Positions 33,709-64,000 of a stretch of 64,000 nt of DNA are shown piece by piece. The notes beneath the pieces were generated by a model that saw only the letters and a list, made by a program, of their open reading frames with translations, did no database searches and was not told where the DNA came from. Source of the DNA: an uncultured virus (IMG/VR IMGVR_UViG_3300009500_000012) (lineage: Duplodnaviria; Heunggongvirae; Uroviricota; Caudoviricetes); IMG/VR virus record IMGVR_UViG_3300009500_000012. The stretch is one strand, 5' to 3'. The first letter of the stretch is position 1; each line of letters begins with the position of its first letter. The position numbers were made by a program, and so were the translations under genes.

Positions 33709-34377
33709 TTACTTATCGAATCCTGGCACGACCCATTCAATGTGGGCCGTGCGCGCTTGCTTTGATTCGTTGGGGGTCACGACGGCGTAGAGGGTGCCCG
33801 AATGGTCCGGCTGGTCGGAGACATAGATGCGACCCCCGTAGCGGGCACGAAGGGCGTTCGGCCCGTCGCTACGTGCGCCGCGCGTCACGGCATTGGGTTG
33901 ATAGCGAATGAAGAGGGTTTCCTCCGAAGCCTGGGCCAAGCGCGCAGCCTGTTTGGCAGCATATTCGATGGCCTCGGTAAGGGCCTCCCCGTTGACGTCA
34001 TCCTCCGTGACCAGGACCGGCATTTGGAGGAACCGTTGCTTTTGGGCCGGTTCACCGCAGGGGAGGATACCCTGGGCTTGAACCTCGGGGGATTCTTTAA
34101 CTTCCGCTTCTTCCTTCTCGGTCATCGGACGGCGCAGGGCCGCGACGGCGATATATCCCGCCACGGGGTCCCGGTCATACGCCTCGCGCATAAGTTTAAC
34201 CATCCCGACCGAGGAAACGACCTCCTCAAAGGACCGGCGTAACTTCGCGCCACGGCCGGTCCGGTTCAGGGTGGCCTCATATGCTGCCCGCAGGGCGATG
34301 GTCATGTTCGTGACGCGAACGCCAAGCGCGACCTGTGCAGGGGTGGGGGCGGTGGTGACTTTTTGCATCGTTTCCAT
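33709..34377 (-). CDS. early hypothetical protein
   Basis: leaderless promoter, terminator downstream. Confidence 0.8.
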   Translation of the reverse strand: METMQKVTTAPTPAQVALGVRVTNMTIALRAAYEATLNRTGRGAKLRRSFEEVVSSVGMVKLMREAYDRDPVAGYIAVAALRRPMTEKEEAEVKESPEVQAQGILPCGEPAQKQRFLQMPVLVTEDDVNGEALTEAIEYAAKQAARLAQASEETLFIRYQPNAVTRGARSDGPNALRARYGGRIYVSDQPDHSGTLYAVVTPNESKQARTAHIEWVVPGFDK

Positions 34378-34408
34378 GTTCTAATTATATCGAATTAGAA
34401 GGGTTATG

Positions 34409-34555
34409 TCAAACCGCTTGCGCGATATTGACGTAAGCGAAAGCAATCATTTTGCCTCGCGAATTGTTGAGGGTCACTTGGAGGCACCCTTCGCCCCAGG
34501 GGGTAAAGGTGCAATAGTAGCCGCGCTTGATGGTGAAGTTCTTAAACGGTTCCAT
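34409..34555 (-). CDS. 48 aa leaderless protein (MEPFKNFTIK...)
   Basis: TATAAT-6-ATG; TGA inside next -35. Confidence 0.7.
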   Translation of the reverse strand: MEPFKNFTIKRGYYCTFTPWGEGCLQVTLNNSRGKMIAFAYVNIAQAV

Positions 34556-34690
34556 GTCCTGATTATACAGAACAGAAGGGGTTATGTCAAATACATTAAA
34601 AAGGGAATACCTCGCATTCTCACTTCCTTCGCCCTACGGCGGGAAGGGGACCAACCTTCCCGCTTATTATAGAGTTAAAGGGTCGTTTTG

Positions 34691-35299
34691 TCAAATGGCC
34701 CCGCAGGGGTAATGGGTTGTCCTGGTCATCGGCGCGCACCCATAGGCGACCAGAACACCAGAGAAGGCCCGTTCTGAATCCGTTAGGCCATCCAAACCGA
34801 TTTGGTGGGGTTTGCGGCGTCCTTTGTGTTGGCCCTCTTTGTAGGCCCGTTTTTGGGCCTTCTTGTCGATACGTTGGGCCGCAAGGTCCGCTTCCAATTC
34901 TGCAAGGTGGGCCGCTTCCTCCTGGTCCTCTTCGACGGGAGCGGTTTGGGGAGCGGGTTTGACGGCGGACGCAATTTGACGAGAATACTTCGCCAATTTT
35001 CGGGCAACGAAGCGCGCTTGCTTCGGGGTTAAGGTTTGATACTTTTCGGAACCTTCCGCAATATCGGAGAGAATTTGCGCGTCGGTGCCATTGAACCCGG
35101 TTCCGTTATTATAGGCTGTCGCTTGGGCCATTTGTTCATCGGCCGTTTGGTTCGCATAAACGACTCGGAGCGCGCGGTACGTTACCTTCCGTTGAAACGG
35201 GTTGATAAGGGTCGGTTCCGTTTGTGCAACTTCTTGCAGGAAGGATTTAATACCTTCTTGTGTTTTGAGGTCATGCACGGTCGTCGTCGTGTTATTCAT
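34691..35299 (-). CDS. phage hypothetical protein
   Basis: leaderless; QTADEQ..NGTGFNGTDA..LTPKQ..KYSRQ. Confidence 0.8.
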   Translation of the reverse strand: MNNTTTTVHDLKTQEGIKSFLQEVAQTEPTLINPFQRKVTYRALRVVYANQTADEQMAQATAYNNGTGFNGTDAQILSDIAEGSEKYQTLTPKQARFVARKLAKYSRQIASAVKPAPQTAPVEEDQEEAAHLAELEADLAAQRIDKKAQKRAYKEGQHKGRRKPHQIGLDGLTDSERAFSGVLVAYGCAPMTRTTHYPCGAI

Positions 35300-35335
35300 A
35301 ACCTAATTATACATATTAGGTGGAGTTATTGCAAA

Positions 35336-35651
35336 TGAGGTTCCCCCAAAGTGACCAACCTCGGGAGAACCTCTTTGCGCCTAATCAATACACTTGAAGA
35401 GAGGTTTTGCTTTTCTTTCGTTTTTTCTTTCGTTAGTGTCTAACCTTGTCGGATTCGGCGCGCAGTTCGCCTATCTCATACATTCAAGGTTTAAGACTCT
35501 AGGTGATTCGCTTTCTCCTTTCTTTTGGAGGAGACTCGACAAGGGCCAAGGTTACTCAGGGGAGGTGAACGTATCCCGCTAGTTCCTTGTCTCTTTCAAA
35601 CCCTTGTCGATATACGTCGTAGGTGTATTCCTACGTTCCGCTTTCTCCTAC
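35336..35651 (-). ncRNA. putative structured ncRNA (~315 nt)
   Basis: promoter 35658-35686, no ORF, several stems incl. 10-bp TCGACAAGGG/CCCTTGTCGA. Confidence 0.6.
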
Positions 35652-35660
35652 CCTTTAAGT

Positions 35661-35930
35661 TTAATGCTTTTCGGGAGTTATGTCAAATGTCGAAGCGTAA
35701 TACTTCTTTCCGACCGTATACGTTTCATAGGCGAGGCCATCGAAGTAATCGGCCAAGGAACAGAATCCTAGCCCGAAGTCTACAAGTAGCCAAAGGTCCG
35801 ACTCCATGAAGTAAAGGCCCATACATTCGCAAATATCGCGCACGTACACTTCTCCGGTGAAGAGGAGACGGAGCGCATTGTTGATGAGAAGGAAGGTGAT
35901 AACTTTGAAGAGGTCGCAGTAAAGTTTCAT
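35661..35930 (-). CDS. early hypothetical protein
   Basis: TATGCT-7-ATG 35930. Confidence 0.7.
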   Translation of the reverse strand: MKLYCDLFKVITFLLINNALRLLFTGEVYVRDICECMGLYFMESDLWLLVDFGLGFCSLADYFDGLAYETYTVGKKYYASTFDITPEKH

Positions 35931-35973
35931 CTTCGTTAGCATACACCTTTCAATTTATTATGTCAAATGCCTT

Positions 35974-36138
35974 TTAGTCGGCAACCTTTACGCGAGCGTT
36001 GCGACGATGGTTCTTGTATTTGCCTTTCCCGCGCTTCTTATTGTAGGGGGAGTGCCAATCTTCGTGATACATCGTTCCGCGCTTGGTTTTGCGCGAGACT
36101 TCCAATTCGTAACGGAGGTTTGCTTCTCGAACATCCAT
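35974..36138 (-). CDS. 54 aa basic leaderless protein
   Basis: TATACT-6-ATG; MDVREANLRY...KKRGKGKYKNHRR. Confidence 0.7.
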   Translation of the reverse strand: MDVREANLRYELEVSRKTKRGTMYHEDWHSPYNKKRGKGKYKNHRRNARVKVAD

Positions 36139-36225
36139 GCGTTAAGTATAAACCTTCTTTTTAGTTAATGCAAACCAAGAGGAGGGGGTTCTATTTATTA
36201 TAGTGCAAGAAAAGAGAAAGGACCC

Positions 36226-36537
36226 CTACCCTCGGGGGTCCGCTATTTCTCCCTTTTGGATGAGGTAGTCCGTCATTAGGTCCCCCGTAGACTTGAAGGG
36301 CGGAACATATGTCCGGTATGCTTCTCGACCCTCTTCCATCCAAGCGTCATAGCCATCTTGGTCGAGGATTGCATCGCATCGCATACAGGAGAGGAAACGG
36401 CCCTCATCGGTGGCATCATCACGCTTAATCGGTTTCTTCGGGTTGCCATACTCGAACTTTTCCATCGCGCAATCGACGCAGAGGCGTCTCTCGGATTGGT
36501 CGCTGTTGACTCGGTAGCCAACGATATCGTTTTCCAT
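36226..36537 (-). CDS. Zn-finger hypothetical protein
   Basis: leaderless; CVDC, CMRC. Confidence 0.75.
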   Translation of the reverse strand: MENDIVGYRVNSDQSERRLCVDCAMEKFEYGNPKKPIKRDDATDEGRFLSCMRCDAILDQDGYDAWMEEGREAYRTYVPPFKSTGDLMTDYLIQKGEIADPRG

Positions 36538-36573
36538 GTCCTAACTATACACCTAACTTTTGGTTATTGCAAG

Positions 36574-36825
36574 TTACCAATCGAATTTAGTGCAAACGGG
36601 GCCGCATTTTTCGCGACATTCTCCAGAAGCATAGTGGTGGCGAATATGTTCCGACCGTTTCGCTTCTCGTTGGGCCTCGCGTTGACGACGAACCTTCTCT
36701 GCTTGCGGGTCATAGGTCCGACCGAATCGGTTCACCGGGAGGGCACCGTTGGCGAGTTCATCACACCGGAGGCATCCTTCAACCTTCTTACCGAAGTTCG
36801 GGCCGTGATTGTGTTGCGTTCCCAT
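36574..36825 (-). CDS. Cys/His-rich hypothetical protein
   Basis: leaderless; CLRC, CGPVCT.FDW. Confidence 0.75.
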   Translation of the reverse strand: MGTQHNHGPNFGKKVEGCLRCDELANGALPVNRFGRTYDPQAEKVRRQREAQREAKRSEHIRHHYASGECREKCGPVCTKFDW

Positions 36826-36851
36826 AACCCTATATTACATTTAATTAGGAG

Positions 36852-37127
36852 TTATGTCAAGGGATTTAGAAGTGCGAGAAGCCTTCTCAATTCCTTGATT
36901 TGTTCTTCTTTTGCTTCGATAGCCTTTTCCAGGGCCTTCTCGAACGCTAGGATGGCCTCTTCTCCATCGGTGTAGAAGTCTTTGCGCGCGACGGAGTAGA
37001 CTGTTCCGCAGGCAATTCTCCGACCATTATCGCGAACCTGTGAAACAGTAACTTCCCGAAGGTAAGGAATACCTTCGTGGTTACTGTCGATAATGAAACC
37101 TTCGGTTCCTTTGCGAATATCTTCCAT
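36852..37127 (-). CDS. early hypothetical protein
   Basis: ends LT-stop inside next -35. Confidence 0.75.
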   Translation of the reverse strand: MEDIRKGTEGFIIDSNHEGIPYLREVTVSQVRDNGRRIACGTVYSVARKDFYTDGEEAILAFEKALEKAIEAKEEQIKELRRLLALLNPLT

Positions 37128-37237
37128 CCTTTATATTTTAATTTAATCCCACAGTTATGTCAAGGAATAAGCCTATGATAAGTAGAAAGCAAAGAATGGA
37201 ATAGAGGAGGGCTTGAAAAGCGCCCTCCTCTTTTTGG

Positions 37238-37417
37238 TTAATCACCTTCGGTTCCCGTTGCTTGCAGAAACCGTTCCCGGTTGAAACGGGGGTTCGTTAT
37301 CGCCAACGAATCGGCGAAGGCAAGGGCCGCAGAACGTCGAGCGGAACGGAGACTTGCCGAATGGGAAGGCATCCCTTTGATGGTGTCGGCAATCAGTTGA
37401 AAGTCTTTCTTCGTCAT
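37238..37417 (-). CDS. 59 aa phage protein (MTKKDFQLIA..NPRFNRERF)
   Basis: leaderless; terminator 37204-37230 follows. Confidence 0.8.
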   Translation of the reverse strand: MTKKDFQLIADTIKGMPSHSASLRSARRSAALAFADSLAITNPRFNRERFLQATGTEGD

Positions 37418-37456
37418 GTGCTTACTATAAACCTATAACGAAGTTTTGTCAAAGAC

Positions 37457-37855
37457 TTACTTTCTCCGCTTGTTGTGATTTCCCCATCCCACAGTTTTCC
37501 AAGAATGAGGGAAAATTTCTTCAATGAACATAGCGACCTTAACAGGTATACCATACGAACGGTAGAGAGACTCCACTATGAGGGTTTGAAAGGTATCATG
37601 CCTTCCCCCTTCTCTTCCGTGATATACGTGGTCGATATAGTGCCCTAATTCGTGCAAGAGGGCCGCAGTATGTTCTGTCGTGGAACCATTTTTGCGGAAG
37701 TGTAGATAAATGATTTTGCTACGGGAAAAGTACCTTCCCGTATCTTTGTGGGCATCACGAAGCGAAGCAACTATGACCCGAGGAGCGGGTATGCCATAAT
37801 CTTTACAGACTATGTTTGCATATTCTTGTGCCCATGTGGTCAAAGAAATGTTCAC
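37457..37855 (-). CDS. HExxH zinc metallopeptidase-like (SprT-like)
   Basis: LLHELGHYID..H; leaderless GTG. Confidence 0.7.
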   Translation of the reverse strand: MNISLTTWAQEYANIVCKDYGIPAPRVIVASLRDAHKDTGRYFSRSKIIYLHFRKNGSTTEHTAALLHELGHYIDHVYHGREGGRHDTFQTLIVESLYRSYGIPVKVAMFIEEIFPHSWKTVGWGNHNKRRK

Positions 37856-37963
37856 TTGATAAGTATAACCTTTTTTAAGTAGTTATGTCAAAGGCTTGTT
37901 CTCTTTAATTTATTATAGAGTAAAAGAAAGAGAGGCTCCCAGGGCAAGAACCTCCTCTTCGCT

Positions 37964-38221
37964 TTACTTTTTCTTGCCTTTCTTGGGTTCCATGTTGCGT
38001 TGACCCTTGGAGGCACGGATTTGTGCCCGCGTCATCTTCTTACGCTTGCGGGGTTGCTTGTCCACGGGGAGGGCCACAGGTGCCAGGATGGACAAACCCT
38101 GTTCCTCGGCGCGTTTATGCCCTTCCAGGACCCATTCGATATTGACCGGAACGGTGTTCGGATTTTGCGAGAAGTTCTTCGCAGCGAAGGGGGCGAAGGT
38201 GGTCGTCATTTGCTGTTCCAT
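37964..38221 (-). CDS. basic hypothetical protein
   Basis: leaderless. Confidence 0.7.
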   Translation of the reverse strand: MEQQMTTTFAPFAAKNFSQNPNTVPVNIEWVLEGHKRAEEQGLSILAPVALPVDKQPRKRKKMTRAQIRASKGQRNMEPKKGKKK

Positions 38222-38230
38222 GAATTAAGT

Positions 38231-38404
38231 TTATACCTTCTCGGAAGTTTTTGCAAGCGAACCTTTGTTTTTATAGGCCGTTGTCCACTTGTGCCACTTG
38301 GTTCCAAAGTGTATCCCCATATGGTAGGAGACAACTCCACGATTTTGTTTCAACGCATGAGCATAGCAGAAACGGTAAAGGCGTTGCTTCTGAAACTCTT
38401 TCAC
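38231..38404 (-). CDS. 57 aa protein, GTG start
   Basis: TTGCTT-17-TAGAGT-6-GTG. Confidence 0.5.
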   Translation of the reverse strand: MKEFQKQRLYRFCYAHALKQNRGVVSYHMGIHFGTKWHKWTTAYKNKGSLAKTSEKV

Positions 38405-38501
38405 CTTCTTACTCTATCATAAACTGAAAGATAAAGCAAATATAGTTTTAAGATATTATAGCATTAAAGGAAGAAAAGAACCCCCGGAGGGGGTCTAGTT
38501 G

Positions 38502-38528
38502 TTAGCCGAAAAGTTTGTCAAGTTTCAT
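38502..38528 (-). CDS. 8 aa micro-ORF MKLDKLFG
   Basis: consensus promoter, TATAAT-6-ATG, terminator follows. Confidence 0.45.
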   Translation of the reverse strand: MKLDKLFG

Positions 38529-38564
38529 AACCTGATTATACCTTTTTGTTGATGTTATTGCAAA

Positions 38565-38650
38565 TGAGAGGAGTTTTCAATTAACGGGAAGAAAACTCTT
38601 AACAACTCCCGGCCTTTTCTGTGTCCCATTCGACCACGGGGGCCAACCTT
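38565..38650 (-). ncRNA. putative small RNA
   Basis: promoter 38657-38685, no start codon at TSS, hairpins. Confidence 0.45.
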
Positions 38651-38665
38651 AATTTAAGTATAAAA

Positions 38666-38845
38666 CTATTTGGTAGTTTTGTCAAACTTCCAGGTTGGCA
38701 TGACTTCTTCGCGAGCCTGTTCTAGGCACAGGATGCACGTATATTCGTCCGCAACGATGCGAACCGTATCCCGAGGGCGAAAGTCTGTTACCTTCGCACC
38801 ACAACGAATTGATTCTGTTTTCTTGTCGAAAAGGTGGTTTAGCAT
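38666..38845 (-). CDS. hypothetical protein
   Basis: coupled to upstream stop; C..CILC. Confidence 0.55.
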   Translation of the reverse strand: MLNHLFDKKTESIRCGAKVTDFRPRDTVRIVADEYTCILCLEQAREEVMPTWKFDKTTK

Positions 38846-39114
38846 GAAAGTGCGAGAAGCCTTTCTTTCCAATCCGAGGAAAGTTTATCCCCTTCTGCTT
38901 TTTCTTGAAGAAGTTCGTACAGTTCGGGATAGGTAACATAATCCCGAGTATCACCTTCATCGGAGCAGAGAACCTCTACTGATTCACCTGCAACCGAATG
39001 AATCATGGGATTCGGTCCCATAAGAATTGAAACTTCCTTCCCATTCTCGAAAGAGATTACCGCATGACGTACACCACGCGAGGTCAAGAAGTGTGGTTTG
39101 ATTTCAACTCTCAT
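38839..39114 (-). CDS. early hypothetical protein
   Basis: leaderless. Confidence 0.75.
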   Translation of the reverse strand: MRVEIKPHFLTSRGVRHAVISFENGKEVSILMGPNPMIHSVAGESVEVLCSDEGDTRDYVTYPELYELLQEKAEGDKLSSDWKERLLALSC

Positions 39115-39200
39115 GCACTAATTATATCTTAAATTGAAAGATAATGCAAGAAGAAAAGAAGAAGCCTTGGGATGCTTGATTCCAAGGCTTTTCTAATATG

Positions 39201-39464
39201 TTATCCGTTATATTCGGAGAAACAACGCCCCTCGTCTAGTGCGACTTGATAGCGTTCGATGGATTCGATACAACTTTCTAATTGTAGACGCGCCATCAGT
39301 AGGTCGCGATGAATCCCGCGATTATAGGATTTTTCGATGTTGACTTTATCAATAGTATCACAGGAATCATATCGCGCATGATACTCTTGAAGTTTGTTCT
39401 TCATCGCTTCTAATGAAGTGATTACATCAGAAGTGTTAAAGTTAGAAACCTTCGATTTAGCCAA
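39201..39464 (-). CDS. hypothetical protein (leadered)
   Basis: AAGGAG + TTG start. Confidence 0.65.
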   Translation of the reverse strand: MAKSKVSNFNTSDVITSLEAMKNKLQEYHARYDSCDTIDKVNIEKSYNRGIHRDLLMARLQLESCIESIERYQVALDEGRCFSEYNG

Positions 39465-39584
39465 AATTTTCTCCTTAGAAGAGTAAGCCCTAGAAGGGCA
39501 AAATTAGTTTTTACAAACCAAAACATATCAAATTACCAAAGTTATGTCAAATGTAGGTTGTTCTATATATAATAGTGTTGAAAA

Positions 39585-39811
39585 TAAGAAGAAGGAGAGG
39601 TTAATTACTCCTCTCCTACTTTCCGCAAGGCGTCCCTTACTTGCCCGTTTTACATTCAGGTGGTGCCATACCTACACCATTCCGACAGGTGTTGTGGTTC
39701 TAAGTTTTTTAGTCCCTGGAAGTCAAACCCTAGACTTAAAAGCCTCCAGCGGGATTGTTTCCGTATCATCGCTTTTGTATCACGGTAAGGACGAACAATC
39801 AATTTCCTTAC
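39585..39811 (-). ncRNA. putative structured ncRNA (~225 nt) with 5' pseudoknot
   Basis: promoter 39818-39846; GTAAGGA/TCCTTAC stem from +1; loop GATTGTT pairs AACAATC; 3' terminator. Confidence 0.65.
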
Positions 39812-39911
39812 AACCAAAGTATATCAAAGCATTGAAGTTATGTCAAATGGAGTTTTATTCTATGTATAATATACTTGAAAAGAGGAAGGGGAACCGGAGT
39901 TCCCCATTCTT

Positions 39912-40196
39912 CTACTTAATCCCGAGGCGGCGTTTGATTTCCGCTTTAACGAGGCGGGCTTGTTCGCCCTTGTAGGTGGTGGCGTTGGAGAGGAAATACA
40001 TTCCAATGGACCGACCGGAGTCCGCACCATAGGCATCCTCGAATGAGGCCATATCGGACATGGCCTCTAAGTAGGGAACCGCACCGAAGTAGATTTTGGG
40101 CTTCCAGGACTTGCGAACGATATACGCAAGTTCGTTGACCGTCTTGCTTTTGAGTTCTTCCGCCGAAACGACGTTGTTGTTGTTGCTGATTTCCAT
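39912..40196 (-). CDS. phage hypothetical protein
   Basis: leaderless; YFGAVPYLEAM..YFLSNA. Confidence 0.8.
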   Translation of the reverse strand: MEISNNNNVVSAEELKSKTVNELAYIVRKSWKPKIYFGAVPYLEAMSDMASFEDAYGADSGRSIGMYFLSNATTYKGEQARLVKAEIKRRLGIK

Positions 40197-40482
40197 AAAC
40201 CTATTATACCTTTCGATAGAAGTTATTGCAAGAAAAAGAGCCTATCAGATTTCCGATAGACTCTCCAGACTTAATCCTCTGTTTCGATTTCAAACATATC
40301 ATTTCCTAGATAACGCACAGGCGTATCCGAAATGATATTGGCGACAATTTCCAAACCTTTTCCAGACGCCTCTCTAAGGGTTTCGGTTAATTGATTCAAA
40401 AGGTCTTGAAAAGAAATAACTTCTTTTGCCATGTTTATATCATTCTCTCTTTCTTGAAGAATCCCTTTAGACTTGTGAAAAT

Positions 40483-40740
40483 TTAATAATCTTCCGCTCG
40501 CCGCGCATCGGTTTCGTCTTGGTTGACGCCACTTGCAATAGTTCGACCAGAATCTTCGTCGTTGAACGTATCGACTTCGGTTCCATCCGGTAATTCGATA
40601 TATTCACGAACGAGGCATTCATCATCAACGTCAACATCGACTGTTTCGATATTACTCACGTTGAGGGTAGAAGGAAAGAAGTCGCAGGAGGAGCGCACTT
40701 CGGTGCCACCATCCCATACCGAAACGTATGTTGCTTTCAT
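40483..40740 (-). CDS. hypothetical protein
   Basis: GGAG RBS, MKATYVSVWDGG. Confidence 0.65.
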   Translation of the reverse strand: MKATYVSVWDGGTEVRSSCDFFPSTLNVSNIETVDVDVDDECLVREYIELPDGTEVDTFNDEDSGRTIASGVNQDETDARRAEDY

Positions 40741-40744
40741 GTTT

Positions 40745-40945
40745 TTATTCTCCGAATCTATCGGGAACGATTTCCCACTTGCCGACTTTGTTTCCGTTGC
40801 TATCCAAGATATTCTCTTGGTCCCCGACGTATTGAGTGCTTTCATCGGAGGAATAACCCCGGAAAGAATTGGCGATAGCCGTCTTGACTTCACCGAAGGT
40901 TTGCATCGCATCGTTGTCGAGATTGATTTCGAGCGTCATCTTCAT
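40745..40945 (-). CDS. phage hypothetical protein
   Basis: leaderless; ILDSNGNKVG. Confidence 0.75.
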   Translation of the reverse strand: MKMTLEINLDNDAMQTFGEVKTAIANSFRGYSSDESTQYVGDQENILDSNGNKVGKWEIVPDRFGE

Positions 40946-40982
40946 GCTTTAAGTTTAACAACTTTCGGCAGTTATTGCAAAC

Positions 40983-41213
40983 CTAATGAACAATAGGAAA
41001 ATGAATCGCCGGAACCCACGTTAATACCCACAGAACAAGCCAACAGGGGTAAACGAATGGGCAGAAAATACCGAATATCGCGGCGACGTACCAAGGAGCC
41101 CAAACTCCAAAAACCCAGAAGAGAATAAACTCTGCCAGGAGACAAGAAACGAGGTATATCACCGAAAGGAATAATAATTGTATACCATAGAAAAACTTAA
41201 TAAATTCATCCAT
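40983..41213 (-). CDS. small membrane protein
   Basis: leaderless; hydrophobic. Confidence 0.7.
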   Translation of the reverse strand: MDEFIKFFYGIQLLFLSVIYLVSCLLAEFILFWVFGVWAPWYVAAIFGIFCPFVYPCWLVLWVLTWVPAIHFPIVH

Positions 41214-41328
41214 ACTGTTATTCTACAACTTTGGGGAGGATTCTGCAAGGGTTCTGATTATTATAGTTTAATAAAAAGAAAGGCAGGCTTTTTCTCCTTA
41301 GCCTGTCTCTCTTTTTTTGAGGAGGGTT

Positions 41329-41646
41329 TCAGTATTGAATCCGAACAGCCCCGCCGATGGTCAACTCTTTCCCTTGAACCGGATTCATCGCTTCCCGAAC
41401 GAGGGAGAGGAGTTCCGGGAAGGAAGCGACCTTGGCCCCGTATTGGGTGTTAAGCATCCAAGTGCCGGGATGGCTTTTGGTCACGTTGTATAGTGCCAAA
41501 GCACTTTGTTTGTGAAGGGCGATGATTGCGTCATCTGATTGGAGGATGAAGTCGATATCCTCTTCTTTCGAGGGATAGATGACGAAGTTTCGCACCTTGC
41601 GGGCACCAGGGAGTTTGAAGTCAACGCTTGGAATGATGTTCTTCAT
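41329..41646 (-). CDS. early hypothetical protein
   Basis: leaderless. Confidence 0.75.
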   Translation of the reverse strand: MKNIIPSVDFKLPGARKVRNFVIYPSKEEDIDFILQSDDAIIALHKQSALALYNVTKSHPGTWMLNTQYGAKVASFPELLSLVREAMNPVQGKELTIGGAVRIQY

Positions 41647-41681
41647 GTCCTAAGTATAAACTAATAACGAAGATTTGTCAA

Positions 41682-41906
41682 CTAATAGTCTTCTTCTTCG
41701 TCCTCGTTATCCTCCTCTAGGTTTACGTCGTCCATAACATCTTCGGTCGAATAGCCCAAGACGTAAGCCTCTGGAAGAATTTCTTTCCCATTCCAAACTT
41801 CTACCTTATCAGAAATAAGGTGATTGAAGTAAAGGTGTTTAACATCTACTACTACTTCATCGGGAACGCTAACATTGACCCAGGTGACAAAGGTTAAAGT
41901 TTTCAT
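41682..41906 (-). CDS. acidic-tail hypothetical protein
   Basis: TATGAT-6-ATG 41906. Confidence 0.7.
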   Translation of the reverse strand: MKTLTFVTWVNVSVPDEVVVDVKHLYFNHLISDKVEVWNGKEILPEAYVLGYSTEDVMDDVNLEEDNEDEEEDY

Positions 41907-42011
41907 GTGCTTATCATACACCTTTCAGAAAGTTATTGCAAATAGGGTTATTCAATTTATTATACACCAAAAGAGAGAAGAGAGAGCCGGAGCCCTCTAC
42001 TTCAATCTTCC

Positions 42012-42434
42012 TTACACTTCCTTGACTTTGTACCCGAAGTTATTGAACACCTTAAGCACGTTCTCGGCGGTGCCGAGTCCGGGATTGCTATAATCACGTT
42101 GGCGGTTGTAAAGGGTTTGAGCCATAACGAGACTGATTTTGTTACGCGAAACCGTGAAGATGTAACCTTCGGTTTCGACAGCCTTCTTCGTTTCGGTCAA
42201 ACCCATGCTGGTCAATTCGCGAAGGAATTTGATAGCCCCGATTTTATCGTAATCCCCATAAGGGCCGATAATGATAAACTTCAACGAAAGCGGGTCTTGC
42301 TTGCCTTCGATACGCAATTCGAGCAAACCCCGAAGGGCCATGTCGGTCACAATCGAAACGAAGGAGGTGCCATCCACCTTGTTATGGGGGATGAGGATTT
42401 CTTGGTCGCCTTGCTTCAAAACAATGTTCATCAT
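42012..42434 (-). CDS. ribosomal protein L7/L12 C-terminal-like domain protein
   Basis: KIGAIKFLRELTSMGLTETKKAVE. Confidence 0.75.
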   Translation of the reverse strand: MMNIVLKQGDQEILIPHNKVDGTSFVSIVTDMALRGLLELRIEGKQDPLSLKFIIIGPYGDYDKIGAIKFLRELTSMGLTETKKAVETEGYIFTVSRNKISLVMAQTLYNRQRDYSNPGLGTAENVLKVFNNFGYKVKEV

Positions 42435-42479
42435 GTTTTTATTCTACCTTTTTCTTGAAGTTATTGCAAGAAAGAATTA

Positions 42480-42665
42480 TTAGGGAACGTAGAAAACAGG
42501 TGAACCATAATCAGGATTGTATTCCTGAACAGTTTTCCATTCGATGAGATTTTGTTCTTCCAAAGCCCGAATGGCTTGAAGTGCAGCAACGCGAGTCACA
42601 CCCGGCAAGAAATGAATGACCGCCCCAACTTGCCGAGGTTCTTTGTTCTCATTGTTATTGTTCAT
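42480..42665 (-). CDS. early hypothetical protein
   Basis: leaderless. Confidence 0.7.
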   Translation of the reverse strand: MNNNNENKEPRQVGAVIHFLPGVTRVAALQAIRALEEQNLIEWKTVQEYNPDYGSPVFYVP

Positions 42666-42753
42666 ACTTCTATTATCAACCTTTAGGGTAGTTTTGTCAA
42701 AAATTATTCAATTTATTATAGCATAAGAAAAGAAAGAGGGCCAAAGCCCCCTT

Positions 42754-43139: not shown

Positions 43140-43161
43140 AAACTAATTATAGACCTTCTCT

Positions 43162-43592: not shown

Positions 43593-43593
43593 A

Positions 43594-43770: not shown

Positions 43771-43796
43771 GCTCTAAGTATAAACTTATTGCGGAG

Positions 43797-44012: not shown

Positions 44013-44027
44013 GCTATGAATATAAAC

Positions 44028-54578: not shown

Positions 54579-54604
54579 AAACCCATTCTATCAAGAATAG
54601 AAAG

Positions 54605-55147
54605 TTATTGCAAGCCGGTTGTCGCTTCTACTCCACTCATAATCTTGCCATTGGCAATAATCATGCTAGGAGCATAGCCTCCTTTGCAAACATTCAACCA
54701 TTGTTCATAGGTAGCAGTAGAGTAAGCCCCTGCATTGGCCCCGGTTTCTGCAAGCCATTTAGCCAAGGCTTCTGCGGTTGGAAACACAGGTGAAATAGGG
54801 GTCCCTTCAGTAACAGTTTCAAACATCATGTAATGAGTTTGCTGTTCCTTGGGAATCAACATATAATCAGAGGCTTGAGGCGGTTCACCATACCATTCTG
54901 AAAATGTTGCACAACTCTCTTCTACAGACTTAGGAACAAAATCCCCGCTAACCCAATCAAGTGTATAGCCTTTTTTCCATTGCGCCTTTTGTAATTTATA
55001 CTGTGCAACGGTTTCGGCAAATTTTTCAGGGGTTGCATAAAAAAGAGGTTTAAATCGACCTCGTAAACGTGGGTGTTCCCAAGTCTCCTCTTCACTATAA
55101 ACAGGATGAACGTAATCTGCGGGCACCATTCGTACTTCTCTTCCCAT
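54605..55147 (-). CDS. phage hypothetical protein
   Basis: MGREVRMVP..ETVTEGTPISPVF; ends LQ-stop. Confidence 0.75.
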   Translation of the reverse strand: MGREVRMVPADYVHPVYSEEETWEHPRLRGRFKPLFYATPEKFAETVAQYKLQKAQWKKGYTLDWVSGDFVPKSVEESCATFSEWYGEPPQASDYMLIPKEQQTHYMMFETVTEGTPISPVFPTAEALAKWLAETGANAGAYSTATYEQWLNVCKGGYAPSMIIANGKIMSGVEATTGLQ

Positions 55148-56439: not shown

Positions 56440-56557
56440 TGGTGGAAATAGAAGGATTCGAACCTTCATATAGTTGACACAAGTATCGCGAATACCTGGT
56501 GAGAAGAGACTAGTATTCTCTGTCAACCTGTTTTAATACCACTTAAACTATATTTCC
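56440..56557 (-). ncRNA. tRNA-like RNA (118 nt, CCA encoded) with branched two-hairpin domain instead of an anticodon loop
   Basis: GGAAATA/TATTTCC, D arm GTTT..AAAC, GGTTGACA/TGTCAACT, GAAGG-TTCGAAT-CCTTC, ACCA. Confidence 0.85.
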
Positions 56558-56906
56558 CATAAAGAGGGCATCATGTCCTTTCCCCTCAGTCTTGCATTGA
56601 AATACAACCCGGTAAGATTGCCCTCGCGTTTCTTGCGGTCATGGGGCGTCTTATCTTAGTAGCAAGTCTTAAAAATTTGGGGCAATCCGGTAACGCCAAG
56701 AGGTTGCAACCCCTTTTTGCTTCCCATACGTAGCACATACGATTCGGGTTCCTCACAAGCCGCATTGCCATGCCTTGTGAGTCCTGCCTGCCCTGGTTTG
56801 TCCGAGAGCCGTAAGAATTCTTGAATGGACAGGAATCATTCAAGTTGAGTTACGCAGAGGACCAGGATGTAAGGACTTCCGTTTCATGAACCGGCTAGAA
56901 CCTTAC
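56558..56906 (-). ncRNA. putative large structured ncRNA (~350 nt)
   Basis: promoter 56913-56941; stems GTAAGG/CCTTAC, CTTGAATG/CATTCAAG, CTCACAAG/CTTGTGAG, GATTGCCC/GGGCAATC. Confidence 0.65.
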
Positions 56907-56944
56907 AAACTCATTATACTATTTGAATTTAGTTTTGTCAATTT

Positions 56945-57119
56945 AGATAATCGCCTCGGTGGAGGTTAGGCTCCTCCAATATCCCTTAACTCTCGCCATG
57001 TTTTTCCTTGCGGAACCCATCTGCTTCAAACGAGCGCAGGCTGATAGACTTCGGTTGTCTATCTTAGGGCCTCTTTATTTTATTATCCGATACTACCGAA
57101 TTTATTCCGGCGACCATCT
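56945..57119 (-). ncRNA. putative 175-nt ncRNA closed by 11-bp terminal stem
   Basis: promoter 57126-57154; AGATGGTCGCC/GGCGATTATCT; internal hairpins. Confidence 0.7.
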
Positions 57120-57213
57120 AAAACTATTATGCCATTTTCATTTAGTTTTGTCAAGTACGGTTCCAACAGTAGGCGTGGAGAAAAAGTAGACGCCTAGTTT
57201 TACTATGATACGC

Positions 57214-57396
57214 TAGGGCATACAGGGCTCGAACCTATATTTCCCGATGTTCCCCCAAGCACAAACCGCCAAGTCTGAGCCACCTAATCATTCTCTTGCT
57301 TACTTTTTCGTAGTTGGCGCTAGGAATTTCAGCATGGATTGATTCAGATTCAAGGGGTACTAGTCAAGGCGTTTTGTCCATTTAAACGAATGCCCC
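57214..57396 (-). ncRNA. tRNA-like RNA (183 nt) with ~100 nt insertion in anticodon arm
   Basis: GGGGCAT/ATGCCCT, D arm GTTT-AAATGGACA-AAAC, ATAGG-TTCGAGC-CCTGT. Confidence 0.75.
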
Positions 57397-57631
57397 ATTC
57401 CCGTATCACGCCCATTGGACTGATTACTACACCTTCTGTAGTTTGATTTGAGAAGGTTTTCCTACTTCTCACCGGGTCGAGACATGTCCCGGAGGCTAGT
57501 TGTAGCGTCCCATTTAAGGGATACCAATGAACTCGAAGCACCGTGGGAGTATCTCATTGGCTGTCAGCAACGTCGTCTTGGGTGCTACCTGCTTCTCGGT
57601 TATTTTGTGACCAAGCGTTTCCGCTCACCAC
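57397..57631 (-). ncRNA. putative multi-hairpin ncRNA (~235 nt)
   Basis: promoter 57638-57666; GAGCG-GAAA-CGCTT, CCAATGA/TCATTGG, CCGGG/CCCGG, TGAGAAG/CTTCTCA, ACTACA/TGTAGT. Confidence 0.6.
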
Positions 57632-57752
57632 ATTTATATCTTATACTATTTGGAGAGTTTTGTCAAATCCTTTTTGTTTAATTCAAAAAAGAATCTCCTG
57701 CCATGACGCCATGAAACTTTATGACTCTTGCAGGAGCAATAATTGAAACGCT

Positions 57753-58232: not shown

Positions 58233-59204
58233 CTAGACCTCTACGAGGTACTTGAGGACTTCATCCTTCAAGGGTTCATCAAAGGTGCGGATATACTTGC
58301 GTTCGAGCGCACCGTTCGGGTTGTCCTTGGTTTGGTTAGTAGCCCGGTCATGGTCGAGGTAATCAACCGTGGCATTCCAGAGGCCGTAGGCGGTATCACG
58401 CACGTTCGCGATATCGGCAGCATTGAGCGCCTTATTGAACAGGTTACGACCCTTTTCAATTTCGGTTTCCTTGCGCTTACCAATCGACATTTCGGGAAGA
58501 GGAAGGAGGATTTGGTCACGAACGAATTCGATTTCCTTCGTGGTGACAGGCTTCTTGAGAAGGCCATTCATCACATCTTCAAACTTCGTGAAGTAATCTC
58601 CCGAGATTTTCAGAACGTCACGGGCCGCAAGAACCAGAGTGTTGGTATCCATTTGGTTCCCGATATGCTTGACACGGAAGGTATTCTTTGCACCTTGCAA
58701 GGCAGCAGTAAGGGTATTTTGGCAAACCACCCGAACCGGAGTAATCACGCAGATAAAGGAACCTTTGCCGTCGTGATGATTCAGAAGCAGGATGTAACGA
58801 GAGATTTCATCCCCGGCAATTTTAGTGATGTTAGGAAGGCGCATCAGAATCCATACGCGCTGCCCATTATCGAACGTGCCCGCCGTTTCAAAGAGGGACT
58901 CGTTCTGGATGCCCGTAATCGCCTCTGCGAGATTAAAGGCTTCTTCATTCTGAAGAGGTTTGTAGCGTTTCGTAACCGTACCGAGGATACGCTTCTCATC
59001 CATACGCACGACATTGAATGCGCCGTGATTCGGGATGAATTCTTCGCCGACTTTGGCATAAGAAGGATGGAGTTCTACAGTCCAATCAAGGCCACCAAGA
59101 ACGCGGGCTTGAAGGGCGTTTAAGTCATGGTCGGGCACAACGCCAAGACCATGCCACGGGGTTTCACGAACGGAGACGATGGAAGTGATATTTCCAGCCG
59201 ACAT
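58233..59204 (-). CDS. DUF932/DUF945 phage/plasmid-like protein
   Basis: PWHGLG, YKPLQNEEAF, ETAG, NHHDGKGS, VRVVCQNTL, AYGLWNA. Confidence 0.85.
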   Translation of the reverse strand: MSAGNITSIVSVRETPWHGLGVVPDHDLNALQARVLGGLDWTVELHPSYAKVGEEFIPNHGAFNVVRMDEKRILGTVTKRYKPLQNEEAFNLAEAITGIQNESLFETAGTFDNGQRVWILMRLPNITKIAGDEISRYILLLNHHDGKGSFICVITPVRVVCQNTLTAALQGAKNTFRVKHIGNQMDTNTLVLAARDVLKISGDYFTKFEDVMNGLLKKPVTTKEIEFVRDQILLPLPEMSIGKRKETEIEKGRNLFNKALNAADIANVRDTAYGLWNATVDYLDHDRATNQTKDNPNGALERKYIRTFDEPLKDEVLKYLVEV

Positions 59205-59425
59205 ACTTTGTTCTTTATTCCTTTCAGGAGTTGGGGAGAACAAAATGATAGTACCAACTTCTGGTAGATAATGCAAGTGCCAATTTTTAGAGTGGTCCTA
59301 TTTATTATAAGACTGAACAGGTTTTCAAGGATTTTACTCCTCGAAAACCTCAGACTCATCTACTCCATGATACATGAAGTAAACAAGCGTACTACAAACC
59401 AGAATCCACAACAAAGTCATCATGA

Positions 59426-59913: not shown

Positions 59914-59918
59914 TGGAA

Positions 59919-60251
59919 TTAACTACTAGTTTTTTTGTAGTCATCAAAATCTTTGAAAGGACCTTGAGGACGCAAAGCCTCGCGCACGATATATTCCATT
60001 TCTGAAATGGCTGCGTCATCAGGAGTTTCATCAGCATCTTCGCCACGTTGACGAATGGCTTCCTTAACAAACCTTTTAGAAGGTTTGATTCCTGCTACAT
60101 CAATTAAAGTAGCAACGACAATCTGAGCAATATCTTCGGGTTCCATAGTAACGAGGTTTGTTTCTTCGTTGTATTTTGGAGCAAATTCGATATCTTCTGT
60201 GTTTTCCATATCCTCATTATACCATTTGAGTTCAGAAAAATCAAGCCGCAA
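59919..60251 (-). CDS. hypothetical protein (start likely 60209)
   Basis: TATAAT and GAGGA before ATG 60209. Confidence 0.55.
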   Translation of the reverse strand: MRLDFSELKWYNEDMENTEDIEFAPKYNEETNLVTMEPEDIAQIVVATLIDVAGIKPSKRFVKEAIRQRGEDADETPDDAAISEMEYIVREALRPQGPFKDFDDYKKTSS

Positions 60252-60873
60252 TCTTCAAAGGAATAGCAGGCTGACGCTTTAGTTTTTCAACCCTATGAGA
60301 CTTTGTAAGACGAATCCATGCCAACCAGCATATTGCCTGCAATTCATAGGGACGCAAACCAAACTTCTTGGCAGCAATCTTATATGCACTAGCAATAGTG
60401 TCATAATCAGTATCAGTTAGGGACCAAGGTTCAGAACGCTTGCCCATATAGATTGAAAATGCATGAATGTCTACAGTAACTTCTTTTGATTCTGTATAGC
60501 CAATATTATGACAGAATGAACGCACCTTCTTGCTAGTATACGCAAGCGAAGGATTGTTCTCACGAAGAATTCTAAAGGCTTTTTCCTTATTCTTTGTGAA
60601 AGTCCCAACTCGAATAGATTCTGGACCTCGACCTTCTGAATTTGCTTGGAGAACCGTAACCAAATCCTTTAGGTTCTGTTTCCATTTATTTCGCGGAGAA
60701 AGGGCCGCAAGAACCGCAATAGCAGTATCAAGAGGAACATTAAACTTACCTGCGGCTTCAGCACAATATGCGCGAGCCACAAGATACCAATTCAATCCAT
60801 CAATTTTTTCTGCTGCGGTGGCCTGTTCATAGACCTTTAGAATATTGGCAATTCCTGTACGCTTATTTTTCAT
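60241..60873 (-). CDS. phage protein, possible HhH-GPD glycosylase-like (DUF7178-type)
   Basis: GLNWY, AVLAALSPRNKW.QN, KVRSF..NI, VTVDIHA, LQAICW. Confidence 0.65.
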   Translation of the reverse strand: MKNKRTGIANILKVYEQATAAEKIDGLNWYLVARAYCAEAAGKFNVPLDTAIAVLAALSPRNKWKQNLKDLVTVLQANSEGRGPESIRVGTFTKNKEKAFRILRENNPSLAYTSKKVRSFCHNIGYTESKEVTVDIHAFSIYMGKRSEPWSLTDTDYDTIASAYKIAAKKFGLRPYELQAICWLAWIRLTKSHRVEKLKRQPAIPLKIAA

Positions 60874-60987
60874 ATCGAAAAGATTATATCAGATTGAAAA
60901 AGTTATCGCAAGGGCTTGCTCGCTTCTGTTTTATTTATAATATATTTAATTAAAAAGAGGGCTCCTTGTTGTAAGGAGCCCCCTTTA

Positions 60988-61647: not shown

Positions 61648-61726
61648 ATCTTTCTCCTTGAATTCTTGTGAAGTAGTTGTGGACTAATTATAGCAATGAT
61701 TTTTAGTTATTGCAAACCACAACTAC

Positions 61727-62212
61727 TTACCAAGAAGCCTGGTAGTAGAAACTACAGTCGCGGGCTGCTTCATCTTCAAGAAGGAATTTAAGACGGTCCC
61801 TAGTGTATTCCAAGTCATGGAGATAGTATTCGTCAATTTCGGTACTACCAAAAAAGAACCCAGACTGAGGAGTAAGAAGTTCCTCTGCCTTTTCAAAATC
61901 TCCAGCCTTATAGGCTTCGATTGCTTGAACACAGGTATCCCGAAGTTTTTCGAGTTGTTCTCTTTCAACATACGAACGTTGACATTCATCCTTACCATCT
62001 TGAACATTTTGGACAAACCAAGAATGAATCGCATTCGCTTTACGCCAATAAGCAACAGTCACTTCGACATAAATGCTAGGCGTAGACTTCTCAAGAAGAT
62101 GAGTCATGTTGGATGCTTCTAAAACAAGAGGAACCATCTTCTTGTCTGTCTCACTTGAGAACTCGTAGTTCGAGGCGTATTTTTCCGCCATGAGGTACAT
62201 ATCTAATCCCAT
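61727..62212 (-). CDS. phage hypothetical protein
   Basis: MGLDMYL, YWRKANAIH.WF, GFFFGS, YYQASW. Confidence 0.8.
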   Translation of the reverse strand: MGLDMYLMAEKYASNYEFSSETDKKMVPLVLEASNMTHLLEKSTPSIYVEVTVAYWRKANAIHSWFVQNVQDGKDECQRSYVEREQLEKLRDTCVQAIEAYKAGDFEKAEELLTPQSGFFFGSTEIDEYYLHDLEYTRDRLKFLLEDEAARDCSFYYQASW

Positions 62213-62319
62213 GTACGTACTATATCAAAACCTGTAAGTTATTGCAAATACATACATGCGCGTTCAATTTATTATATTTATGAAAAAAATCAGCCTGCTT
62301 ATTAGGCAGGCTGCTGTGT

Positions 62320-63051
62320 TTACAACTTCTCAGTTTTGATAAGGTCGTTTTCGAGAAGAAGTCTCAAAACTTCCGGGAGAGGTTCTTCACCTTCATAGGC
62401 ATTTAGAGGGTCCCCAGGAGTCTTGAAGCGAGTATACAACTTCTCATAATTAGACTTTACATTATTAATTTTACGAAGAAAGAAGGTTTGAAGATATTTA
62501 TTTTCCCAAATAGTGGCGTCTACATTGTAGATTGCATTTGAGTATTCGTTGTTAATATACGAACTCAAAATTTGAGTGGCATTATCTTGAATATCTGCCC
62601 CATCCATTTCACCATCATCGCCAAATTCTTCACCCCGCCAGCGAACACTTCCAGAAACTTTATACCCCCAGGGTGTCAAGAAGTTGTGGCAAATGTAGGC
62701 AAACCATTCCTTGTATCTGTAGAATTTTTCTCCGCCATCCCATTCAATACCTTGAAGGTCTTGTGTAGGAACCCATTGACACCAAAGGCCAGGTTGAGTA
62801 CGAGGAGGTTCATTGTAGTCAATAACGCTAGTTAATATTGCTTCATTAATATCATCGCCTACATAAAATTCTCCATCAATACCTGGAGGCAAATGAACGG
62901 CAATTCGAACTTCATCAGGAAGAATAGCAGTTGCTTTCTGACTACGAAACATTCTTCGGGTATCAGCAAACTTTTTTAAATAAAGTGCTTGGTTTTGAGT
63001 TAAAGGTCTGTCTAAATCAAACCGACCACGGAATTGAGTGTCATAACCCAT
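62320..63051 (-). CDS. phage hypothetical protein
   Basis: MGY.T.F.G.F, QPGLWCQW, WDGGEKFY. Confidence 0.75.
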   Translation of the reverse strand: MGYDTQFRGRFDLDRPLTQNQALYLKKFADTRRMFRSQKATAILPDEVRIAVHLPPGIDGEFYVGDDINEAILTSVIDYNEPPRTQPGLWCQWVPTQDLQGIEWDGGEKFYRYKEWFAYICHNFLTPWGYKVSGSVRWRGEEFGDDGEMDGADIQDNATQILSSYINNEYSNAIYNVDATIWENKYLQTFFLRKINNVKSNYEKLYTRFKTPGDPLNAYEGEEPLPEVLRLLLENDLIKTEKL

Positions 63052-63398
63052 TATAAATTAAAAACCTTTGCCCTTTCAGGATTTACAGGAAGTTTAATAC
63101 CCTTGACCGTTACATGGATATCTTCAGAGATATCCTGGCAGATAAATCCAGGCGAACAAGGACACGCACAGCCTGCGTAGTGCGACCATCGAATGCCCTT
63201 TATAGGCACATCAATGTTTAGTTGCTTAAAAACCTCTGGAAGAAGTTTTCGGTATTCCTTGTGAGGTTCGACACCCCGAGCCACAAGCATATCAAAGACG
63301 CCTGCGCCTTGTACAAAGAAGTAAATTCGACCATTTCTCTTTCGATAATTGCGCCGATTGGCAGGAGAAAAGAATTTCGCTTTCACAATTTCTAACAT
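63051..63398 (-). CDS. phage hypothetical protein
   Basis: leaderless; WS.YAGC.CPCSPGF. Confidence 0.75.
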   Translation of the reverse strand: MLEIVKAKFFSPANRRNYRKRNGRIYFFVQGAGVFDMLVARGVEPHKEYRKLLPEVFKQLNIDVPIKGIRWSHYAGCACPCSPGFICQDISEDIHVTVKGIKLPVNPERAKVFNL

Positions 63399-63483
63399 AT
63401 GAGTATCTTACATTATTTTTGAAGTTATTGCAAATGCTGATTAGTCCCTACTACATTAAGAGACAGGTTCAATGTAGTAGAGA

Positions 63484-63792
63484 CTAAATCTTATAAACTT
63501 CTTCGGGACGCACTTCATGGACATAGGACATAGCCCGGCGAACGGTTCTATCCGTTTCGTCCACAAGATGGCATATTGTGAAATGAATGTCTGATTCAAA
63601 TAACGAAGCCTTCAACTTCTGAATCATAGAAGGAGGACCCTGCAACTTCTCTAAGAAGGAGGGTTTTAGTAAGGGCGTGTTAGCCCTATGAGAGGTCGTA
63701 CAGCAACCTCTCCGGCAGCGAAGTTCCTTCTCATATGTTACATCAATATGATTGGGAGTGAGTAATTCGGAATCAACATGTTCTAAAAACAT
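63484..63792 (-). CDS. early hypothetical protein
   Basis: TTGACT-17-TATAAT-6-ATG. Confidence 0.7.
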   Translation of the reverse strand: MFLEHVDSELLTPNHIDVTYEKELRCRRGCCTTSHRANTPLLKPSFLEKLQGPPSMIQKLKASLFESDIHFTICHLVDETDRTVRRAMSYVHEVRPEEVYKI

Positions 63793-64000
63793 ATTGACAT
63801 TATATCATATTTGAAGTGTTTAGTCAAAGAATGAAGCATAAGATAATTGATAAGAATACCACAGCAATCTGTCCATCTTATCAAGAACTCCTACATTATG
63901 ACCGCGCTTCTTCATTTCGTTGAAGAAGTGACCCTTGTAGCGTTCAGTATCTGTAATGGCATCTTCAACACCAAGTATCTTGGCATCGTTAATAGCCTTG

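Follow-up and report, generated by a model that had tools for sequence, protein, structure and literature searches.

A block of predicted leaderless promoter-gene cassettes in a large uncultured phage

We analysed a stretch of 64,000 nucleotides (nt), called the window here, from the IMG/VR virus record IMGVR_UViG_3300009500_000012, a large uncultured phage whose source is moss samples. Between 33.7 and 64 kb, its minus strand carries small open reading frames (ORFs) that directly follow copies of one promoter family, in the form TTGACA or TTGCAA-TAACT, 17 nt, a TATAAT-like hexamer, 6 nt and ATG. The best reading of this region, to which we give a probability of about 0.72, is a hyperplastic block of leaderless early-gene cassettes that depends on the RNA polymerase of the host and belongs to a large contractile-tailed phage. 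An earlier note on this DNA had described promoters directly before ATG codons throughout the region. Both an untrained scan and a matrix scan bear this out, and all ten starts that it named (34377, 34555, 35299, 36138, 37417, 39114, 40196, 41646, 56358 and 63792) show the pattern.

Promoter family and start-codon register

The untrained scan used the consensus TTGACA/TATAAT with no more than 3 mismatches overall and a spacer of 16-18. The first ATG lay exactly 6 nt after the -10 hexamer at 39 of 107 minus-strand sites in 33,701-64,000, compared to 2/58 for the plus strand there, 4/154 on the minus strand of 1-33,700 and 0/141 on the plus strand of 1-33,700. For the extended -35 word TTGMMAWAACT, the window has 36 minus-strand copies and no plus-strand copy. 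We also built a log-odds matrix from positions -36 to -7 of 38 units, which is blind to the ATG and circular for those 38, and applied it at a cut-off of 12 bits or more with 50 shuffles as control. It returned 64 matches on the minus strand (63 in 33.7-64 kb and 1 elsewhere) and none on the plus strand, while the shuffles gave a mean of 0.08 and a maximum of 1. The sole match outside the block, at 15,771-15,800 (minus strand), heads a leadered gene for a polynucleotide-kinase-like protein that bears a Shine-Dalgarno (SD) site.

The family consensus is T-TTG(CA/AC)A-(T/A)AACT, a 17-nt spacer and TAtAaT, with about 76 copies in the block and 63 in the window; the -35 word is TTGCAA in 26 of the 63 and TTGACA in 20. 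At 41 of these 63 promoters a start codon (40 ATG, 1 GTG) follows after exactly 6 nt and opens an ORF of 48-276 amino acids (aa), with a median of 85. An ATG at one given position has a chance of 0.018, against 40/63 observed. Three promoters have a 7-nt gap, one of which (37855) equals a 6-nt gap with an 18-nt spacer; five have a gap of 9-10 nt, and 14 have no adjacent ORF. The spacer is 17 nt in all 38 aligned units, and their hexamers agree with those of sigma-70 promoters: TTG is (nearly) invariant, T-12 is found in 37/38 units, A-11 in 38/38 and T-7 in 37/38.

When the units are aligned on the ATG and counted from its A, the -35 hexamer occupies -35 to -30 and the -10 hexamer -12 to -7. 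These positions are canonical when the A of the ATG is +1, and RNA polymerase prefers a pyrimidine-purine step at starts. Position -1 was a pyrimidine in 38/38 units (C in 21, T in 17). Further conserved positions were T/C at -36, G or T at -14, G at -4 (23 units) and the extension (T/A)AACT at -29 to -25, with A-28 in 36/38, A-27 in 32/38, C-26 in 38/38 and T-25 in 32/38. An AACT-N6-8-AGTT palindrome was seen by eye in the spacer of some units and is absent from the logo. The 14 ORF-less promoters served as an independent check on the start step: 10/14 have a pyrimidine at position 6 and a purine at position 7 after the -10 hexamer, compared to a background of 0.225 (p = 1.3e-4). In the five promoters with a 9-10-nt gap, a purine follows a pyrimidine at or next to position 7, and leaders of 3-4 nt are predicted. 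By this geometry the predicted leader is 0 nt for 41 units, 1 nt for 2-3 and 3-4 nt for 5. In these promoters of sigma-70 geometry the predicted +1 coincides with the A of the ATG, which points most naturally to leaderless mRNAs. The earlier prediction that these mRNAs would start at the AUG is thus supported by the geometry and by the pyrimidine at -1.

A 5-mer SD core in the interval -22 to -4 was present in only 2/41 leaderless units, and the two TTG starts of the block have SD sites. Outside the block, TANNNT lies 5-7 nt before the start in 3/29 ORFs, which is the chance rate; the leaderless promoter layout is not a genome-wide habit of the phage and is limited to one block. The earlier note had held that most genes in the region are headed by such promoters. 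This stands for about 49 of about 75 candidate ORFs in the window part of the block; it does not extend to all of them, and the promoter-less ones, about 24 in number, are often SD-led. At least 11/24 of these have an SD-like core at 3-13 nt, such as GAGGAGG at 49049, GAGGAG at 51970 and 50846, and AAGGAG at 61647 and 39464 (the last two being the TTG starts). Other promoter-less genes overlap or abut the preceding stop, those at 63051, 55526, 49901 and 47666 among them. SD-like cores are found at 11/29 ORFs outside the block. The presence of SD-led genes within the block suggests that the host reads SD sites and that the phage runs both modes of initiation side by side. The use of the promoter rule to correct starts and expose small genes, also proposed earlier, has a limited yield: the start differs from that of the longest-ORF rule in only 4/41 units, and 6/41 ORFs are shorter than 60 aa.

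Extent, composition and probable turnover of the block

The window is contained at 46,523-110,638 in a longer virus record (G001; 130,281 bp, linear, CheckV 78%). The first 46 kb of G001 code for a tail sheath, a Mu-type portal and a 1,212-aa SLT+M23 protein; because of these sheath, portal and SLT+M23 genes and the terminase, we take the phage to be contractile-tailed. The left part of the window (1-33.7 kb) encodes the large terminase with an intein, an RNA ligase, an AlkB-like oxygenase, Hsp20 and a Cas4-like nuclease. The terminase gene, at 4,328-6,679 (minus strand), matches the phrog_2 terminase, with Hint and intein-splicing matches under the Pfam cut-offs. Window and G001 differ in length by about 115 nt within a GAA-rich repeat at window 32,886-33,014.

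The matrix found 77 minus-strand matches in G001, 76 of them within 80-126.3 kb and none in 0-60 kb, where the structural genes lie, and 4 plus-strand matches at 118.4-121.7 kb. The exact promoter pattern gave 45 reverse matches, every one inside 81,022-126,328, and 1 forward match. From these scans the block measures about 46 kb, or one third of G001, and two thirds of it lie in the window, at 33,676-64,000. The earlier note had let the array end at 63,827; it runs on for about 16 kb in G001. At its other end, a strong intrinsic-terminator-like hairpin at 33,676-33,699 (10-pair stem with 7 GC, T-run) closes the block at the jump in G+C content from 0.30 to 0.49-0.51. The rest of the block, within G001 110,500-130,281, includes a protein with a cREC_REC receiver-like domain, a second DPBB protein and a second AlkB-like 2OG-Fe(II) oxygenase.

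Among annotated phages, neither megablast nor tblastn with a 912-aa protein of the phage found a near relative, and the terminase search gave three distant partial matches only. The 912-aa protein has no relative in IMG/VR and two homologues only, both metagenomic, for which reason we rejected phiYS40 or a close relative as the source; the 222-aa protein next to the terminator has no relative in species genomes and no usable match in the protein atlas. The promoter pattern gave at least 120 matches in species genomes of many phyla, all single, with no array among the matches listed, and we therefore assign no host. In IMG/VR it gave two single, unrelated matches. A scan of metagenomes returned at least 119 loci; among those listed, two contigs carry several matches and the others single ones. 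One of the two contigs is identical to window 34,170-45,684, and the other (L028) is another part of the G001 phage. None of the sequencing runs listed as containing block sequence is an RNA run.

The block is compositionally foreign to the rest of its genome. G+C content is 29-38% in 1-33.7 kb and 40-51% in 33.7-64 kb, and the pooled G+C at third codon positions (GC3) is 0.156 for 19 genes of the left part as against 0.461 for 62 block genes (range 0.28-0.72). TTA makes up 57% of leucine codons outside the block and 10% inside it; a tRNA-Leu(UAA) encoded in the block reads TTA, the leucine codon used most in the AT-rich remainder of the genome. GC3 climbs in the direction of the terminator (Spearman correlation with coordinate -0.62, p = 6e-8), and in G001 the G+C content is 0.49 at 80-85 kb and drops to 0.32 at 125-130 kb. 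Promoters of the TTGACA type concentrate at the GC-rich end, with 15/29 below 44.1 kb compared to 5/34 above. We considered that the jump at 33.7 kb could be an assembly chimera and rejected this, as the junction is spanned in run X1, which was assembled independently, and is bridged by contigs of two further runs, X3 and X2 (the latter of 500 nt). The X2 contig, from another sample and study, covers 33,535-34,034 with no difference to the window. We know of no described parallel for two codon dialects and a smooth G+C gradient in one phage genome.

The X3 contig is about 93% identical to the window and covers 33,436-39,510. In the 222-aa ORF, 18/19 listed differences fall at third codon positions, and among the differences listed the indels are of 3 and 6 nt (two events) inside ORFs and of 1-4 nt between genes. 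For the 202-aa protein encoded at 34,691-35,334 there are six cluster representatives, five of which have the same start (MNNTT, MQTTT, MTK). Third-position bias, in-frame indels, matches to PHROGs and the shared N-terminus of the 202-aa homologues together indicate that the ORFs are coding. PHROGs are matched by 17/76 block proteins and 59/76 match none; all 17 are of unknown function except the HNH protein and a DPBB 'lipoprotein'. Pfam domains in the block are DUF932, DUF2786+DUF7168, DUF7178, DUF7574, DPBB and HNH. A sequence search of the PDB with three large unknown proteins found no match. The leaderless 140-aa protein encoded at 42,012-42,434 (minus strand) contains a short segment that resembles the C-terminal domain of ribosomal protein bL12 in the region of its first helix; this likeness is weak (Pfam 26.2 bits with a cut-off of 25.9; PDB 7pao_W, E = 0.0024).

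The promoters form families of direct repeats, and some neighbouring units share flanks and first codons as well. Relative to the window, X3 lacks the 297 nt that separate two repeat copies of the promoter, 39550 and 39846 (joint 39510 to 39808) and 502 nt with two promoter-less genes beside promoter 40231, and it carries 264 nt inserted at a terminator at 38,495. As the units are direct repeats and the relative differs by segments gained or lost at them, the block probably turns over by recombination. Units that have been emptied may survive as the solo promoters and as a stump of 8 codons (38563). The mixture of GC3 values and the G+C gradient would fit repeated import of foreign genes that were then headed by a resident promoter.

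Individual units and other features

All features described in this section lie on the minus strand. The unit next to the terminator (33,709-34,412) is the model of the family, with TTGACA-TAAC, 17 nt, TATAAT, 6 nt and the ATG of the 222-aa ORF, whose GC3 is 0.72. At 34,409-34,590, a perfect-consensus promoter heads a leaderless 48-aa ORF; promoter and first codons are a duplicate of those in the unit beside it (repeat family D16, 74% over 61 nt). Another perfect-consensus promoter, at 34,596-34,694, is followed by about 65 nt that hold no ORF and end in a T-run. It is possibly a small RNA or an emptied unit, and its fold z-score of -1.1 is not significant. The 202-aa ORF (phrog_21015) then follows a TTGCAA-TAACT promoter without a leader, and 5/6 homologues have the same N-terminus. 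Two further ORF-less promoters (39550 and 39846) sit in 82-nt direct repeats (family D19) at 39,511-39,888, and the 297 nt between them are those missing in X3.

A terminator-like hairpin lies within 90 nt upstream of 13/63 promoters, at 32-47 nt in 11 cases and closer in two, and the intervals between hairpin and promoter have an AT box, cTATAATAAATTGAA, in common. The resulting composite module of terminator hairpin, T-run, AT box and promoter is exemplified at 42,672-42,754; there are about 10-13 such modules (families D7, D9 and D14). The tRNA-Leu(UAA) gene is at 44,320-44,407, and the HNH endonuclease gene at 44,394-44,810 has a leader and an SD-like GAGGT and no promoter head. The gene at 48,849-49,049 typifies the promoter-less genes with a strong SD (GAGGAGG), others being those at 51970, 50846, 61647, 39464, 40740 and 43592. 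At 53,748-54,613 a TTGCAA-TAACT promoter heads a leaderless 276-aa DUF2786+DUF7168 gene, in which the Pfam domain begins at residue 13. The DUF932 gene (58,233-59,276) is leadered, as some 35 nt separate its promoter at 59276 from the likely ATG at 59204, further downstream. The DUF7178 gene (60,241-60,911) has a 9-nt gap and a predicted 3-nt leader, and the units at 58031, 51670, 50344 and 48075 are of the same type.

An ORF-poor stretch of 1.1 kb at 56,560-57,666 contains three TTGACAAAACT promoters (57666, 57154 and 56941), with fold z-scores of -0.2 and -0.4. It holds no Rfam family and no convincing ORF, and a T-arm-like GGTTCGAGCCC occurs near 57,240. The stretch is directly upstream of an odd tRNA-like gene at 56,443-56,557, which has a 47-nt insert in the anticodon loop, scores 44.9 bits with the Rfam tRNA model and receives no call from ARAGORN; the insert is too short for a group I intron. 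The Rfam scan of the block gave two tRNA matches only, and none of the fold z-scores of the three ORF-less transcripts was significant.

Mechanism, known systems and alternative readings

If the block is read as a set of leaderless early-gene cassettes, two thirds of the promoter copies would be joined to a small ORF in such a way that the A of its ATG is the first transcribed nucleotide. The mRNAs of these units would have neither leader nor SD, with the 5'-terminal AUG as their point of binding, while the promoter-less genes behind them would use SD sites or stop/start coupling; in a minority of units an upstream terminator and AT-rich box would be added. As only the transcript from a unit's own promoter exposes a 5' AUG, the synthesis of each protein may be tied to its own promoter despite read-through. 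We take the block for a probable early class, transcribed by unmodified host polymerase, because the genes outside it must use other signals (3/29, as given above). That the block is such an early region, or the host-takeover region proposed by the earlier note, is plausible, as the family is confined to the 46-kb block and does not reach the structural genes, and 59/76 proteins are without a PHROG.

Several points weigh against this interpretation. The rule is not universal, as shown by the ORF-less promoters (14/63) and those with 9-10-nt gaps (5/63). Since terminators are found at only 13/63 promoters, long polycistronic RNAs are likely, and a weak 4-mer (AAGG/AGGT) 12-20 nt before the ATG in 18/41 units might serve such read-through transcripts. 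In its favour, the 41 predicted mRNAs fold weakly over their first 40 nt, at a mean of -3.6 kcal/mol compared to -6.9 kcal/mol for internal windows (Wilcoxon p ~1e-5), as ribosome entry sites should; this is, however, typical of most start regions and not of leaderless ones alone. The conserved (T/A)AACT beside the -35 hexamer corresponds to no known sigma-70 contact, and a different sigma factor or a regulator could be involved. The comparison with X3 draws on one contig of depth 3 and on 40 of 668 differences, and both the positions of the transcription start sites (TSSs) and the 'early' timing are predictions made from sequence.

Promoter cassettes of early genes are known in T4-type phages, and the block represents a predicted leaderless version of them. 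Promoter-early stem-loops (PeSLs) of the T4-type phages phi1 and RB49 were described by Arbiol et al. (2010; PMC2839356); T4-type phages have about 50-52 strong sigma-70-like early promoters per genome, with stem-loops, placed before ORFans and subject to modular shuffling. Set beside that account, the block has in common with PeSLs the strong sigma-70-like promoters in front of ORFans in hyperplastic regions, an AT-rich stretch upstream of the -35 hexamer and terminator hairpins; indels of relatives may likewise end at the repeats, to judge by one deletion between two promoter repeats and two further indels at unit borders in the single X3 contig. PeSLs differ in ending with an SD before the start codon, whereas here the start codon is the predicted +1 and leaves no room for a leader; and a stem-loop belongs to every PeSL, whereas here it is found at 13/63 promoters and always upstream. 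This block also departs in composition from the rest of its genome.

In 2007, Sevostyanova et al. are said to have assigned the leaderless transcripts of Thermus phage phiYS40 to the middle and late classes, with promoters that have no -35 element. Leaderless middle and late mRNAs of phiYS40 also appear in a review (PMC3594737). Like our phage, phiYS40 is large, AT-rich and dependent on host RNA polymerase, with many leaderless mRNAs; unlike it, our phage has the full -35/-10 pair in an ORFan block, and no sequence relation was found between the two. Leaderless genes of Actinomycetota were reportedly treated by Zheng et al. in 2011. For Deinococcota, a study (PMC12340547) showed by experiment that leaderless expression results from a TANNNT -10 motif placed a few bp ahead of the ORF and is enhanced by a -35 element at 17 bp; the -10 motif adjoins about 30% of ORFs. 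In these two phyla, however, the arrangement is cellular, genome-wide and of single genes, whereas here it is a repeat family in a phage block. In two other phages, phiKZ showed no leaderless transcript and AR9 has leaders of 26-491 nt (PMC8244752, PMC5312081).

No description of leaderless promoter-cassette arrays in phages was found in full-text literature, a coverage that excludes subscription journals. A second record of an uncultured phage (G002; 107.7 kb, completeness 31%) has a homologue of the 202-aa gene that is headed by a promoter of its own at 6 nt. This record contains 22 copies of TTGACKTTYTNNNAAA (14 forward, 8 reverse; control 0) before small ORFs at 6-10 nt, forming two diverging promoter-cassette arrays at 29.9-51.9 kb (plus strand) and 7.3-40.2 kb (minus strand), with the promoter flavour TTGACT-TTCTNTAAAA. 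Since different phages thus weld different promoter flavours to ORFans, repeats homogenised within each genome fit better than a shared factor.

The leaderless layout might be no more than the ordinary mode of the host, as in Deinococcota or Actinomycetota, copied by the phage and with nothing phage-specific in it. The Deinococcota figure of about 30% of ORFs speaks for this, and the idea is compatible with the cassette reading. The layout is, however, restricted to one block of the phage; 5/5 distant DUF7178 homologues on other viral contigs lack such a promoter head, and the scans of species genomes gave no relative and, among the matches listed, only single chance ones, so that we hold this account to be possible though doubtful. 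The earlier note saw in the array a sink that titrates host RNA polymerase, with leaderless starts that outlast a shut-off of SD-dependent initiation. Many near-consensus promoters do lie in one block, and for phiYS40 a shift in the levels of initiation factors IF2/IF3 that favours leaderless phage mRNAs has been proposed (review PMC3594737). Yet a T4-type phage normally has some 50 strong early promoters in its genome (PMC2839356), and the phage itself also depends on SD initiation (11/24 promoter-less candidates and 11/29 ORFs outside the block), which makes titration or escape from shut-off an unlikely explanation.

The conservation of A-28, A-27, C-26 and T-25 outside the known contacts of primary sigma factors raises the question whether the promoters serve a phage-encoded or alternative sigma factor, or a regulator that binds (T/A)AACT, with starts elsewhere and mRNAs that are not leaderless. 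As both hexamers have the primary-sigma consensus at optimal spacing, and as other phages show the welded layout with a different extension, we consider this improbable. It is more doubtful still that the repeats are primarily sites of recombination or capture, as in integrons, with a secondary likeness to promoters. The block resembles an integron in its series of small, unrelated ORFs in one orientation separated by repeats; the indels of the relative end at repeats, and the heterogeneity and gradient of GC3 suggest serial import. An integron differs in having an integrase and attC sites: no integrase family was detected among the 76 + 25 proteins scanned, there is no imperfect-palindrome attC-like structure, the repeats are not palindromic and each unit has its own promoter. 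Recombination alone would, moreover, leave the hexamers at 17 nt and the pyrimidine-purine start step unexplained.

Within the reading as leaderless early-gene cassettes, we suggest, quite tentatively, that the weld of promoter and ATG acts as an 'expression adaptor' of a gene-capture platform, in which foreign genes, whatever their composition, are recombined behind a resident promoter at the exact +1. Captured genes would then need no ribosome-binding site (RBS) of their own and would be translated only from the transcript of their own promoter, and the gradient of GC3 (from 0.72 next to the terminator to the genomic 0.3 over 46 kb) would record the order of acquisition and the decay towards an AT-rich state. 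A bolder side reading is that host-like G+C in the first-expressed block evades xenogeneic silencers that target AT-rich DNA.

If the 5' ends are as predicted, about 50 leaderless mRNAs of one promoter family would be among the densest natural leaderless sets, and the phage would offer a system in which to ask what a virus gains from leaderless initiation, be it insulation from read-through, independence of an RBS or timing by IF2/IF3. Gene finders would gain a rule for ORFan regions of phages, and the split in GC3 may help to date the import of cassettes. The arrays of G002 beside that of G001 suggest a common, undescribed design of early regions in uncultured phages.

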